A stretch of DNA of 63,984 bases, the filler included. It is 13 parts of 13 records of this genome, joined end to end, with 100 filler letters (N's around TTAATTAATTAA, not from the genome) between each part and the next. Parts side by side here need not be neighbours in the genome. Positions count along the whole stretch, not along the records: positions 47,473 to 52,854 come from SRR7504441_9731; 12 more parts are not named here. One strand, given 5' to 3'. The stretch's first letter is position 1, and each line of letters begins with the position of its first letter. The position numbers and the translations under genes are program-made. This document shows positions 3,837-53,092 of the stretch, piece after piece. The notes beneath the pieces are model-generated. The model searched no databases, was not told the DNA's origin, and saw only the letters and a program-made list of their open reading frames with translations.

Positions 3837-3936
3837 NNNNNNNNNNNNNNNNNNNNNNNNNNNNNNNNNNNNNNNNNNNNTTAATTAATTAANNNNNNNN
3901 NNNNNNNNNNNNNNNNNNNNNNNNNNNNNNNNNNNN
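3837..3936. other. Artificial contig linker N44-TTAATTAATTAA-N44 (first of 12)
   Basis: The same 100-nt six-frame-stop linker also occurs at 8589, 12590, 19930, 24656, 29038, 33354, 39171, 47373, 52855, 56948 and 60092. Confidence 0.98.
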
Positions 3937-47122: not shown

Positions 47123-47755
47123 GAGCGTAATGCGCGCTCCCGTGACCGATTTGTGTAATTAAATCATTATCCCTTATGATTGATTGGTCGATCGAATGTA
47201 AACTGACGGTTCATGGCATCTATGCGACTGTACACTTGCAGCAACTATCGTTTTTGTCGCTCGGCTCGCAGGCCTGTGCTGTCTTGTTATCAAGGTCGTC
47301 CAGGTATTCTTGTATGGCTCTATTGGTCTCCTCCGACCAATGTGATGGGAGTAGCTAGCTCCCAGTTGGTTCNNNNNNNNNNNNNNNNNNNNNNNNNNNN
47401 NNNNNNNNNNNNNNNNTTAATTAATTAANNNNNNNNNNNNNNNNNNNNNNNNNNNNNNNNNNNNNNNNNNNNCTGTTGAATGACTTCCTAGAAAAACAAT
47501 TGTTGGTCAAGTACCGTGCAGAGCACGGCGAGCGAGTGGGAGACAGTATGCACGACGGGGCGATCAGAGAAGCCAAAGAGCAAGCCAAAGTAGAGAAAAC
47601 ATTTAACAAACCCCGGATGATCAATTAAAACTCAGCATGCATAATCCTCGCATGCGCCGTGCATTGGTCCAAGCTCTTCCGCTGTGCAGCGTATTAATTA
47701 ACGGGGTGTTTGTTGTGGCAGCGGTCGTAGAGAATCTGCTGGCCCTGCTCCGATG

Positions 47756-48625
47756 CTAGTCGGTGGCCTTCCTCTTCTTCGTCGCCTCCTCGGCCTCCTC
47801 TACGGCCATCTTGACAGCCAGGTGCAGCCCGACCAGCAGCATGTTCTTCTTGGCCTCGGCCACCTTCTCACCGTGCGGATCGTAGTCGCCATCACCCCAC
47901 TTGAGCGGGTTCCCGTCCACCACAGCCACCGCCCCGGCCCGGATCCGTCGCAGCTGGGCCACCACCAGCAGGCAGGCCGCCTCCATCTCGACACCAAGCA
48001 CGCCACACTTGGAATACAGCTCCAGCGAGCTGGGCAGCTGCCCCGGGTAGAACATATCCGACGTGAGCACCAGCCCCTGGTGGTACGTGCACCCGCGCTC
48101 CCGGCACACCTCGCTCAGCGCGCCCACCACTTGGTGGTCGGCCACGGCCGGCAGATCAGCCGGCACCACTAACTTAGTGTACCCGTCTTCACGGGCGGCT
48201 GCCGTCACCACGATCATGTCGCCTTGCGCTGCCCCGCGGTTTCAGTCGGGGCGCCGGCCGGGACGGGCACCGATCGACTCCTGGAGCGCTCCGCAAGTGC
48301 CGAGCCGGACGATACACTGGGCCCCGGCCTGGATGAGCTCCTCGAAGCAGATAGCCGCCCCAGCGCAGCCGATCCCGTGCGAGACCATCGCCAGCCGCTG
48401 GCCCTGAAAGCTCCCCACGCACGTGCGGTACTCGCGGTTGTACGCCACCTACCGGCTGCTGCTGGCCGCCGGCGCTTCGCAGGCACACACCTCCTCGGCG
48501 CTGTCGCAGAGATCGGCTATCGCAGCCACCCGGGCCGGATCGCCAGCTACTAGCACAAACGGCGGGATATCGCCCCGCTTAATCTTGAGGTGCGGTGCCA
48601 CCCAGCCATCAGCTTTGTGATCCAT
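47756..48625 (-). CDS. Uridine/purine nucleoside phosphorylase (hexameric NP-I family)
   Basis: PHLKIKRGDI..GDPARV, NREYRT, SHGIGCAG, RLGTCGAL, SDMFY, VEME. Confidence 0.9.
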
Positions 48626-48739
48626 AGTGCTCGGGCGGGGGTGACCGGCTCAAAATCCGTGTGGCCAGCAGGTTCAAGTGGCGGCCAGAGTCCAGAGGTG
48701 TGCCCACCGGAGGTGCCAGGCGGCAAGAGGAATGCAGGT

Positions 48740-49470
48740 ATGCCCGGCGGCAAGCGAAAGCGGATCGAGTTCACGCCCGAGAGCGACCGGTGGATCGTCG
48801 AGTTTGTGGCCCAGCGGAGCACCGCCGAGCTCTCGGTGGGCGGCAACCGGCTCTGGCAGGTGCCCGCGGGAGGGCCGGGCCCGCCTGAACCTGGGGCGTG
48901 CAGCTCATGGAGACCGAGGACCCGACCGGGCACAGCTGGCACAGCCTCAGGTCCCGCTACTTCAAGGTGCTCGTCCCCGAGCAGCGCCAAAAGGCCAAGC
49001 AGAAATCATCGGTCGCCCAGCTCAAAACGCTCCGGGTGAACAGCGGCCGGCGCGCGCAGGAGCCAGCGGCTGGGTCGGACCAGCCGGCCGACCCACCCGC
49101 GCAGGCCCCAGAGGATGACGCCGCAGGGCGCGACCCGGTCAGCCAGCGCGAGGATCCGGAGCCCCAAGCGGTGATGAGCGATGCCGACAAGCGGCGCGCA
49201 GTCCGCAGCCTGTGCCAAATCACCGATTTCCCGCTGCCGGTGGTAGTTCACGCGCTGATCGTGCAGTCAGGGGACGCCTGCAGGGCCTTGGAGTACCTGC
49301 AGCGGCGGCCATCTGAGCTGGAGTGTGTGCCCTGGTCGCACACAGAGGACGAGCTGTTATTGATGGATAATCACGACAAGAGCTCAAAGGCGCAATTCAA
49401 AGCGTTGATCCAGAAGAGGGGCCGTTCAGCAGTGGAGGAGCGAATGGAATGGCTGGAGAGCTTTGAATGA
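48740..49470 (+). CDS. RAP1: Telomeric Rap1 homolog (Myb + RCT)
   Basis: RIEFTPESD..GGNRLWQ|LMETE..HSWHSLRSRYFKVL (Rap1 Myb); VVHALIVQSGD..A..YL..PWSHTEDELL..RG...VEERMEWL (Rap1_C). Confidence 0.82.
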
Positions 49471-49961
49471 CCTAGTAACACATCCCTCTCTAATTTCAGT
49501 TAGACTTTGTGACGGCCTCCATGTTCACCATGGCTCTCGGCGTACGATGATCAGGCGACGCAGATCACGTTCATCAGGGTCAAGACTGAACAGGCCAGAG
49601 ATCTCGTGACGCATTTCAGCCCGTGTTTTATAGTAGTCGTGTGCATTTGAGCATTCCCTTTCAAATTATAAATTGTACTTTTAGAGCGTCTTTCACTTCC
49701 AAAATACTTGATATATAATTTGATTGATTGAATCAAAATATTATCAAACTATTTTATTGCTCAAGACTTAGAGAGGTCTTGACGCAATGTCATCTACATG
49801 ACCTCTCCAAGCCGTGCTCGACTTTCGATACTACTCGTTGGGACTTTCGACTCGACTCGACCCTTGGAAGCGGCCATCGTCTTGAACACTACTAGTAAGT
49901 CTTGAACACATGCAGCTATTTGTAGCATGCGCACCCATAGACTGTTTCGATCGGCAGGTGC

Positions 49962-51817
49962 TCAAATCACGACCTCTCCTGCAAGCACAACCGTGGCCCG
50001 CCCGCCAAAGTGCACTCGCTGGTTATCCAAGTCCACTTGCACTATCCCGGCGCCCATCCGCTCCGAGCAATGGAGAGCAGTCAAGTGGCTTACCTGCAGC
50101 TGGGCTGCCCAGTAGGGTCCCAACGCTGCGTGAGCCTCGCAGTGGGCGGCAGGCTCGACCGGATATTCCCACGGCGCAAAGTAGCTGCCACAGCCCGATC
50201 ACACCCGCAGCTGGCACCAGCATCACCGGGAGCAGTATTTATATGTATCGCGGGTTTCGTCGGTAAGACGCGGGCAGAAGGTAGTCACGCACACCCCACA
50301 AAACTCCATCTGATTGGCCACGGCCTCCTTGGCTTCGTTGAGCTTATATGCGTCCACTTGCAGCCGCTCTAGCGCCTTGTCATTTCCGTCTGAGAGCTGC
50401 CCTGGCTCAGCATAGGCCACACCGGGCAGCCACCCTGATGATCAGCAGCTTGGTCGACTCGCAGGTCATCACGGCCTCAACTGGCAGCTGTCCGACTGCA
50501 GCCCGGATCACTGGGCTTGCCACCTGTCCGGGCTCGAGCTGCAGGCGCGGCCAGGCACCGGGAGCATCTTCTCAGGCAGTGGCGTCACAGGGTGAGACGG
50601 CATCTCTAGCAGCAGGCATGGGCTCGGATCAATGCTAAGCCGGTTCACAACCTGCCGCCCTGGTCAGCTCGGCTGGCCTGATAACGGGATGCCTGTCTGC
50701 CAAACGCCGTTTCGAAATGAATCGTCGACGATCTGTTGTGGTGCGCATCAGACAACACTGCTGCTGCAGCCAGCGTGGAATGGCAGTAGCCGCTCAGCTC
50801 CCCTGCAGGCGAGAACCACCTCAACTCAAACACGTCCGACCCCACGAACGTGTCGGCCTTGGTCAGAAGCCGGACAAATACCGTCTCACATATGTTCCGC
50901 TCGCCAGCCAGCCGGAGCATGGTGGACGTGAGCATCGGAGCGGATAGCGGGTGGCTGGCCGGGAGTGCCTCAGCCTCCTGCTTGGAGACTGGGATCATGA
51001 TCACCGCGGCCGGGCTGCCAGTGAACGGCACGCTGCTGAACACGTCCACCTGGAACATGTCGAGCTGACTCCTCCCACTCGCTGTGTAGTAGTCACACAG
51101 CCCCGGCCACAGCTCAGCGACCGGCTCCTGCGGGGCCTTGGCGCGCTTGGGATGCACGGCCGGCGCCATGTTGTCGGTGTATCCGCAGGTCCAACCCTTG
51201 TGGTGCTTGGCGGTCCCTCGGGCGACCTGGCACATGCATTGTACATTGAGCCCGTGCAGCTTGCAGAATTGAACTAGTGAGATGTCTGATGGGTTGAACA
51301 ATTCTCCCCCCGGGCTCTTGGCCCAGAACCCTTTGGGCGTCCGCCCCCGCTTCTTCGGCAGCTGTGCGCGCACATCCACCTTTGACACTTGCATCTCGGC
51401 CGCTGCGACCAACGCCAGCGTCTGGGGCGGTGGCAAGTCTATCGGCTCGATCGGCGGCATGGCTGTGTTGCTGCCCGACTCCAGGTCCAAGAATCCGCAA
51501 CGGTAACCCCTGTGCCCCTGGCTGTGCCCGAGCGCGGTCAGGTACATGACTGCGGTCACCAGGTCCCTCGTCTCGCAGTATTGGTTCAACGGCTCGTTCG
51601 GGGTTTGCCGCGGCTCATCCGGTGGCTCAACCCAGTACGGCCGGTTCGCCGGGTCGTATGCACAGGGCGGCGGGAAGCGCGGCGGGGCGCTTTGGTTTGG
51701 GGTGGGCTCGAGCGGTTGGGTGGGTTTGACTGGACTGGATTTGGTTGGCAGCGAGGAAGGCTCGGGCGGGAGCTCTGCAGCAGGAGTGGCCCGAGCGGAG
51801 CGGCGAACCATCGGCAC
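49962..51817 (-). CDS. PhzF/PBLD-family protein with N-terminal AT-hook and homing-endonuclease-like DNA-binding domain
   Basis: FQVDVFSSVPFTGSPAAV, NICETVF, ELRWFSPAGE, SR|YFAPW, LGPYWA, VHFGGRATVVLAGEVVI*; upstream KKRGRTPK and SPGGE..FCKLHGLN..M..VARG...HHKGWTC. Confidence 0.82.
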
Positions 51818-52014
51818 AGAGGGCGAGCTGCCGCTGCTGGTTACGCGACCGTCGGCCCTTGTGTTGGAGCCGTCACCAGCGCAGACGGGTGCGCAATTCG
51901 CACAGGATGATGGAGATCGCCAACGGAAGATCTAGCCTCTTCTGAGAGCACAGCGTACCAGCGTGACCTCTGGTGTTGTTGGTTGGTGGCGAGCAAATTG
52001 CCGGGTCTCGCATC

Positions 52015-52854
52015 ATGCAGCGCTGTGACGAGCCAGCCGGAGCCACTTGATTGACCGGTGGACAGACGAAGATTGGGTGGTGCGGAACAACAGCCTGGTT
52101 GAGAAGCTGTGCGCCCGGGGGGGGACGGCCGGTCACTGGCGGGCAGCGAGGGCCTGGCGCACACCCTTTTCTTCCTATCACCCACCCGGATCCGCGACTC
52201 CGAAATCAGGACTGAGAGCAGTGGGCCGCCGCCGGGCTGCCGGGCGCTCAGTGCATCGGGCAGTGTATACAGCGGTCAATCTGATCTCTCTGTACCACGA
52301 GCACATCCGACACAAGCGGCACCTGGCCAGCACCCGGCTGGGGGGCGTCAAGCTCACAATGCTCCGGGGCCTCCAGCTGGCCGAAGTTATGATAGAGATG
52401 AGCACCATTGTGCTCGTCGGGCACGGCAAACAGAAGTGGCGGGTGATTGCGGCGGTCGAGCTGGCCAAGTCCCATGCCGCCCTAGGCTCGAGCGCTCTCT
52501 CAGCCCTGGGGGCAGGATGGCGCTCCGGCTGGCAATATTGAAGGAGCGGTCGGGTTCGATGATCATTGAGCAGGTGGCTCACGACCCTGCAGACTTCGGC
52601 GCCTCAAAGCCACCGCCCGACCCCCTCCAGGGCACCCCTCAGCAATAGGCCTGCTCACTGGCCGGCAGCCATAGCCAGTCGGCGGTTCGGCGAGACGGCG
52701 CAGCTGGTCGGCCGGCGGTCGGGCGTCACTTTCCAATCCAGGAACAGGACCGGTGCTGCCCGGCCGGCCCCCCAGCTGGTGCTGGCGGAGATACTCTACA
52801 TCCTGCGGCCGGTGGCATACTGTGAGTGGTCTGCTGTGAGAGGAGGAATGAGCG
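52015..52854 (+). CDS. PEX16: Peroxin 16, 3' truncated
   Basis: Spliced MQRYEDWVVRNNSLVEKLE..DSEIRTESMYTAVNLISLYHEHI..EVMIEM..KWRVIAAVELAK..AEILYILRPVAY. Confidence 0.88.
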
Positions 52855-53092
52855 NNNNNNNNNNNNNNNNNNNNNNNNNNNNNNNNNNNNNNNNNNNNTT
52901 AATTAATTAANNNNNNNNNNNNNNNNNNNNNNNNNNNNNNNNNNNNNNNNNNNNCTACTCTACGTACTCGCTCTACTGGCGTCTGACGGCTACAAGGACA
53001 AAGTTAACTCTGCTGAGGATGAGCACTTAGTGCGGAAGACAGATTCAGTATAGGCATAATTAATACGAATCAGTATAGTGCAAATTTAAGAT

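Follow-up and report, generated by a model that had tools for sequence, protein, structure and literature searches.

Can the DNA-binding tail of a homing endonuclease persist in a host protein from which the nuclease has gone, and what would an enzyme fold of the PhzF family do when joined to it? The question is raised by a gene on the minus strand of a 63,984-nucleotide (nt) stretch of joined contigs, here called the window. An earlier note, made from the letters of the sequence, had flagged in this gene a segment akin to the helix-turn-helix (HTH) tails of phage GIY-YIG and HNH endonucleases, in frame with a PhzF-like enzyme, and the strings that it quoted (KKRGRTPK, GFWAKSPGG...HHKGWTC, ELSGYCHST and VEPAAHCE) are all present. 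Our analysis showed that the flagged segment is an I-HmuI-type NUMOD-like HTH, as found in the tails of GIY-YIG and HNH homing endonucleases. The gene and the main parts of its product, with positions in amino acids (aa), are as follows.

49962..51811, minus strand: whole fusion gene, from start to stop codon; five exons, four introns, product of about 564 aa
50693..51811, minus strand: exon 1; encodes the low-complexity N-terminus, the two HTH repeats with linkers, and about 120 aa at the start of the PhzF fold
51485..51655, minus strand: HTH repeat 1, aa 53-109; I-HmuI/NUMOD-like, diverged (...RPYWVEPP...GHRGYRCGF...)
51332..51355, minus strand: basic patch KKRGRTPK, aa 153-160; putatively like an AT-hook or a nuclear localization signal
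51176..51331, minus strand: HTH repeat 2, aa 161-212, the flagged segment; recognized by PHROG, phmmer relatives, an I-HmuI profile match, AlphaFold and Foldseek
49965..51061, minus strand: PhzF-like domain, aa 251-564; recognized by Pfam, Protein Data Bank (PDB) chains and alignments, and split by the four introns

The stretch GFWAKSPGG...HHKGWTC makes up aa 161-209 (about 51185-51331) of repeat 2. This repeat matched PHROG 2081, named "HNH endonuclease," with an expectation value (E) of 1.5e-6. A phmmer search of 1.84 billion representative proteins returned 828 relatives at E<=1e-3, with 136 at E<=1e-10 and one at E<=1e-30, and most of them carried two to six matched stretches, that is, tandem copies. 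Pfam was run on 146 of the best 150 of these 828, four long proteins being scanned apart. The I-HmuI_NUMOD-like family PF22083 was found in 82 of the 146 (best E, 3.2e-24) and GIY-YIG (PF01541) in 80; NUMOD3, SegE-type GIY-YIG and LEM-3-type GIY-YIG occurred in 17, 10 and 5, respectively, and none of the 146 carried the PhzF family. By tblastn, 27 phage records matched repeat 2, all with less than 60% identity and over less than 80% of the query's length; the annotated ones were labelled homing endonuclease, GIY-YIG or HNH.

Structural comparisons agreed with these assignments. A profile of alignment A4 matched residues 95-171, in the C-terminal region of I-HmuI (PDB chain 1u3e_M), at E 6.6e-9, and its matches to I-TevI stem from the GIY-YIG portion of the aligned proteins. 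The profile search was needed here, as phmmer with the single repeat 2 sequence against the PDB gave one chance match only (E 1.5). Using A4, AlphaFold modelled repeat 2 as strand-strand-helix-helix-strand with a mean predicted local distance difference test (pLDDT) score of 81.5 and 88 to 96 in the core. The Foldseek comparison proposed in the earlier note placed 1u3e_M at rank 1 (E 2.1e-3), with probability 1.00, a template-modelling (TM) score of 0.64, a root-mean-square deviation of 1.8 A over 55 columns and 31% identity. In the ESM Atlas, where scores of at most 0.79 make the matches leads only, the nearest clusters were viral NUMOD1 or I-HmuI-like. The kinship with phage endonuclease tails that the note had claimed was thus confirmed by the PHROG, Pfam and I-HmuI matches.

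The earlier note had described a single DNA-binding module; the one at aa 161-212 is there, but a second copy at aa 53-109 had gone unlisted. Repeat 1 gave no Pfam hit and fell below the threshold of the domain hidden Markov model (HMM) used for the repeat tree described below. It matched repeat 2 of the relative P0022 by BLASTP at E 2e-7, and repeat 2 of the window protein matched repeat 1 of the relative P0005 at E 9e-11. In an AlphaFold model of the two repeats, both copies had the same topology, with pLDDT values of 94 to 98, and the 50-residue linker between them, at about 48, was disordered; the repeat 1 block, with pLDDT values of 94 to 97, consisted of a strand, two helices and a strand. 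Further copies of the module were not found elsewhere in the window, the next tblastn match having an E of 0.13. In the basic patch, K153, K154, R155, G156, R157, P159 and K160 were invariant in alignment A5 of four sequences. Its designation as an AT-hook was not borne out: the canonical core RGRP is replaced by RGRTP here and by RGRIP in the relative P0155, and Pfam gave no AT-hook match.

Both repeats and the start of the PhzF fold (Pfam profile positions 1-101) lie in a single exon in the window, and the architecture recurs in two other sources. One, L004, is a metagenome contig of 1,978 nt with a guanine-plus-cytosine (GC) content of 0.52, carrying an orthologue from a relative of lower GC content; once spliced, its gene is complete from start to stop and encodes the whole architecture in 587 aa. 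The sole intron (positions 764-813, 50 nt, GTAAGT...CAG) lies within HTH repeat 2, so that a single exon holds the second half of repeat 2 together with all of the PhzF part. L004 lacks all four PhzF introns of the window gene; intron positions have been fully turned over between the two species. The other source, P0155, comes from a Trinity transcriptome (EukProt) and has 500 aa; two repeats in this protein are followed by a PhzF-like region, in which Pfam found no PhzF match even at E 0.1. Its isoform P0022 aligned to aa 150-380 of the window protein with 34% identity (E 1e-29). A word-index search with P0155 returned its own cluster only, and one with residues 45-215 of the window protein returned only P0005 and P0157. 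Because the exon is shared here and the architecture recurs in L004 and P0155, HTH repeats and PhzF fold are encoded by one gene and not by two transcripts, a fused architecture of which we are highly confident and which the earlier note had proposed, together with a search for the same arrangement in other sources. The parts of the window protein are conserved to different degrees:

Basic patch and repeat 2: 81% identity to L004, 58% to P0155
Repeat 1: 56% identity to L004, 37% to P0155
PhzF-like part: 43% identity to L004, 26% to P0155
Linkers: 27-39% identity to L004, 17-18% to P0155

Since identities are highest in the DNA-binding modules (81%, versus 43% in the PhzF part), these are under the strongest selection.

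In a search of sequencing runs, at most 0.10 of words were matched, in 18 marine runs. Contigs from two polyA libraries and one oligo-dT library lay on exon 5 (49969-50164) and exon 1 (50761-50940), which is not proof of transcription. The HTH repeats, the HTH-to-PhzF junction and the spliced joints were covered by none of the five short contigs obtained from four RNA runs. As to the single transcript that the note had asked to confirm, the transcript-derived P0155 reads through, and no RNA contig from the window gene spans the junction.

How the gene is read depends on its introns. The minus-strand open frame runs from 51931 to 50648, with a Met codon at 51811, and its first exon encodes 388 aa. 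Within the PhzF fold the frame shifts three times, and there is one more interruption with two in-frame stops. Excision of four tiny segments yields a coding sequence of 1,695 nt without internal stop, encoding 564 aa. The note had spoken of a complete PhzF fold: the whole fold is indeed encoded, but only once these four introns (41, 35, 37 and 42 nt) are removed.

50652..50692, minus strand: intron 1, 41 nt, GC...AG; the tblastn match with L004 stops at 50690
50524..50558, minus strand: intron 2, 35 nt, GTG...CAG
50397..50433, minus strand: intron 3, 37 nt, GTG...CAG
50185..50226, minus strand: intron 4, 42 nt, GTG...CAG; contains two in-frame stops

Of the four introns, intron 1 has the least secure boundary, since an alternative 26-nt GT-AG intron is possible there. 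L004, which is uninterrupted in this region, provided an independent check of the splice model: its translation matched the window as three separate pieces, with breaks at introns, and the third piece crosses intron 4 as a 14-residue gap in L004. Moreover, the GC content at third codon positions (GC3) was 0.70 to 0.85, unbroken over about 51740-50840 in the fusion frame. As GC3 is continuously high, the sequence ahead of PhzF is coding too, in the same frame as PhzF; by our own arithmetic, about 250 stop-free codons at such a GC content would arise by chance with a probability near 1e-3. A chance open reading frame (ORF) and an assembly chimera were both considered and rejected, given the GC3 continuity and the same architecture in two independent sources. 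The best explanation is a host gene of an uncultured marine eukaryote.

The enzyme-like part belongs to the PhzF family. PhzC-PhzF (PF02567) matched aa 255-376, in exon 1, over profile positions 1-101 (E 4e-13, 49.9 bits against a cut-off of 27), and profile positions 203-281, the C-terminal third, matched 49965-50198 in the last exon (E 8e-4); the middle of the fold was covered by alignment. The PhzF-family PDB chains 4dun and 1s7j matched the window protein at E of about 1e-5, and a word-index protein search with the whole ORF gave only three distant PhzF matches. We aligned the PhzF part with three bacterial PhzF-family proteins, P0155 and chains 4dun and 1s7j. According to the part of PMC5524880 cited here, E45 of PhzF is indispensable, and the active-site side chains are those of E45, H74, D208 and S213. 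The Pseudomonas PhzF numbers were transferred to the motifs by way of the offset of the P0001-1t6k alignment and the five-residue spacing from Asp to Ser, and the corresponding positions are the following.

50885..50887, minus strand: Glu309, equivalent of Glu45 (CETVF for SETAF), from alignments
50780..50782, minus strand: His344, equivalent of His74 (YCHST for CGHAT), from alignments
50130..50159, minus strand: altered second motif VEPAAHCEAH (canonical EDPVTGSAH), from a gap-free alignment

The equivalents of Glu45 and His74 were retained in all three members, namely, the window protein, L004 and P0155. In the second motif of the window protein, Pro stands at the Asp208 position, Glu at the Ser213 position and Cys in place of Gly. 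L004 shares this Cys, has Glu at the Asp208 position and retains Ser213; in P0155 the second motif could not be aligned. The earlier description of a degenerate PhzF was therefore correct for the altered Asp208/Ser213 motif but not for the Glu and His, which are kept. By sequence, the domain is a remodelled PhzF-family member in which half of the active-site signature has changed, and loss of activity is not implied.

In the 388-aa first exon, Pfam gave PF02567 and no nuclease domain, and none of six minus-strand ORFs upstream matched a Pfam family at E 0.1 (best, DKCLD, E 0.15). The L004 and P0155 proteins begin just ahead of repeat 1. Because no nuclease catalytic domain was found, the fusion protein is not a homing endonuclease. 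Nuclease-free repeats also occurred elsewhere: P0012 (707 aa) and P0053 (376 aa), eukaryote-looking, low-complexity proteins, carry a very similar repeat pair followed by unrelated C-terminal regions. P0012 has a canonical RGRP (KPRGRPR) as well as a weak KIAA2026-helical match (E 0.022). We built a FastTree phylogeny of 486 repeat units from 151 proteins, comprising the spliced window model and 150 relatives (P0004-P0155), with P0022, P0154, P0156 and P0157 excluded as near-duplicates. Nine nuclease-free units fell within an 11-tip clade with a support of 0.939. This grouping suggests that the nuclease-free units go back to one recruitment.

The product begins with a disordered N-terminus, followed by HTH repeat 1, a disordered linker ending in KKRGRTPK, HTH repeat 2, a second linker and the PhzF/DapF-fold domain. 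The two HTH modules, aided by the basic patch, would bind DNA in the nucleus and, being in tandem, may recognize an extended site as they do in endonucleases. PhzF proteins dimerise, and the PhzF-fold domain could be the effector part, binding a small molecule and probably dimerising. The whole protein may thus act as a one-component-style regulator. We give slightly less than an even chance to the reading that it is a lineage-specific regulator that binds DNA and has its PhzF fold for sensing or dimerisation, and the regulatory mechanism just described is put forward tentatively, with doubt somewhat outweighing belief. More speculatively, and in our judgment improbably, the nuclease-free pair of I-HmuI-type HTH modules could form the DNA-binding cassette of a lineage-specific protist family of transcription or chromatin factors that has so far gone unrecognised and that was recruited once from homing-endonuclease tails, as AP2 was; the window member would then be a eukaryotic one-component regulator, in which a metabolite in the remodelled PhzF pocket (Glu and His kept, new Cys) controls DNA binding or dimerisation.

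Several observations weigh against the regulator or against the steps leading to it. The direct match of repeat 2 to PF22083 had an E of 0.014 and 15.4 bits against a cut-off of 27, below threshold; because of this score, the link to that family rests on homology to proteins carrying the domain, on I-HmuI and on the fold. Foldseek gave nothing at E<=0.001 for the repeat 2 model. The repeat tree is unrooted and spans about 50 residues, and its rows were selected by likeness to the flagged segment. The viral descent that the note proposed for the module may, but need not, be right, as the tree has no root and homing endonucleases also occur outside viruses. A metatranscriptome contig, X3 (50107-50371, depth 2, 3 mismatches), spans intron 4 unspliced. 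It could reflect DNA carry-over, pre-mRNA or intron retention; if it were mature mRNA, the protein would lack the final 73 aa of the fold. The regulatory function itself would follow from domain identity, and retention of the Glu45 and His74 equivalents is as compatible with an active enzyme as with a sensor.

This last point leads to the main rival, permitted by the retained Glu and His, in which the PhzF fold catalyses an isomerase or epimerase reaction on a different substrate and the HTH pair serves just to hold it on DNA or chromatin. Besides the two residues kept in the window protein, L004 and P0155, this reading can appeal to L004, where Ser213 is present and Glu occupies the Asp208 position, and to the Gly-to-Cys change, which looks shared and selected in the window protein and L004. 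However, the window protein has other residues in place of both Asp208 and Ser213, P0155 has neither a recognisable second motif nor a Pfam PhzF match, and the PhzF part is far less conserved than the HTH repeats; we consider such a tethered enzyme unlikely, though a serious contender. It is also conceivable that the HTH modules have lost DNA binding and now serve as an RNA-binding, protein-interaction or nuclear-import/scaffold region. The divergence of repeat 1, missed by both Pfam and the domain HMM, would fit such a change of role, and no nuclease partner or target site is known for the fusion protein. Against this stand the fold, kept in both repeats with high pLDDT, the family signature of repeat 2 and its 81% identity between species, and I-HmuI, which uses the corresponding region on DNA (1u3e is, by its title, a DNA complex), so that we regard this change of role as quite improbable.

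A decaying or neutral fusion, either the relic of a homing-endonuclease insertion beside a PhzF gene or a pseudogene, would account for the altered PhzF motifs and for an RNA-library contig, X3, that crosses the two in-frame stops of intron 4 unspliced. Yet the architecture is retained in three diverged sources (26-81% identity by domain), the spliced frame is intact with a coding signature in GC3, and the PhzF exon of L004 is uninterrupted, which makes decay very unlikely. The least probable of the alternatives, to which we give hardly any credence, is that only a stand-alone PhzF is made from the internal Met252, the upstream frame being a separate product or a leader. Although MFQVDVF at Met252 aligns with the N-termini of all three bacterial PhzF proteins, the frame runs without a stop from the repeats to Met252 and GC3 is continuous, the L004 intron splits repeat 2 and leaves its second half in the PhzF exon, and P0155, derived from a transcript, reads through.

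Among known systems, I-HmuI (1u3e, PF22083) and the tails of GIY-YIG endonucleases share with the fusion protein the signature SPxG...L..FC...L....M..V..G....HKGW, the fold and the tandem arrangement. In contrast to those enzymes, the fusion protein has no HNH or GIY-YIG nuclease domain, it is encoded by an intron-bearing, nuclear-type host gene, and it has an added conserved basic patch, a two-residue insertion ahead of the first helix and an enzyme fold that follows. The relation to the PhzF/YddE/YHI9 family (PF02567, the trans-2,3-dihydro-3-hydroxyanthranilate isomerase fold) is above the Pfam threshold and collinear over the two-lobed fold, with the Glu45 and His74 equivalents present, whereas the fusion differs in an N-terminal extension of about 250 residues that holds two HTH modules and in the changes of CGHAT to YCHST and of EDPVTGS to EPAAHCE, with Asp208 and Ser213 not kept. 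Bacterial one-component regulators consist of an HTH and a small-molecule-binding, enzyme-like domain, and they likewise combine a DNA-binding module and a ligand-type domain in one polypeptide; here the host is eukaryotic, the HTH is of another class, and the PhzF fold is unusual as a sensor domain. The AP2/ERF and ApiAP2 transcription factors have a DNA-binding domain that is shared with homing endonucleases and are, like the present gene, an example of eukaryotic host proteins that have taken over a DNA-binding module associated with endonucleases and do without the nuclease. Their fold is unrelated (AP2 is a beta-sheet domain), and the partner in the fusion is an enzyme-like domain.

Host reuse of endonuclease-associated DNA-binding parts is thus already known, and the present gene is a variant of that theme. 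Marine protist transcription factor repertoires are poorly known, and many lineage-specific DNA-binding domains derive from mobile elements. In the part of PMC3384342 cited here, WhiA and SMAD are given as such reuse, and WhiA/DUF199 is described as a bacterial regulator consisting of a catalytically dead LAGLIDADG homing-endonuclease fold and an HTH. On that description, WhiA resembles the present case in that homing-endonuclease parts were domesticated into a gene regulator, but it retains the dead nuclease fold, while the fusion retains only the DNA-binding tail, in a eukaryote. A full-text literature search, which did not extend to supplementary files, found no report of a PhzF fusion with an HTH module of this type. 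The gene is a concrete, conserved case of a homing-endonuclease DNA-recognition tail joined, with its nuclease gone, to an enzyme-like domain. Should its DNA binding prove specific, protist genome annotation would gain a new DNA-binding family, and the module could supply a recognition unit that is compact and modular; should the PhzF fold sense a ligand, the protein would join the few eukaryotic regulators that link a metabolite directly to DNA.

The surroundings of the gene are limited by the make-up of the window, a string of contigs of about 4 to 6 kb joined by spacers. Each of the 12 spacers consists of 44 N, the 12-mer TTAATTAATTAA and 44 N (for example, at 3837-3936, 47373-47472 and 52855-52954), and the 12-mer creates a stop in all six frames. 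Because the spacers join separate contigs, genes on either side of one are not necessarily neighbours. The fusion gene lies entirely within the piece 47473-52854, and the following genes are found around it.

48740-49470, plus strand: Rap1-like gene (Rap1_C, E 2.5e-6; Myb_Rap1, E 1.1e-3), convergent with the PhzF-fusion gene
52047-52538, plus strand: Pex16-like open frame (Pfam E 2.6e-7), divergent, about 240 nt upstream of the fusion-gene start codon
53096-53674, minus strand: open frame for a DOT1-like methyltransferase (Pfam E 4.6e-8), past the spacer in the following contig piece

The Myb domain of the Rap1-like gene is interrupted by a GTG...CAG intron of 44 nt (about 48860-48903). Since this neighbour also requires one, tiny introns are a trait of this genome.

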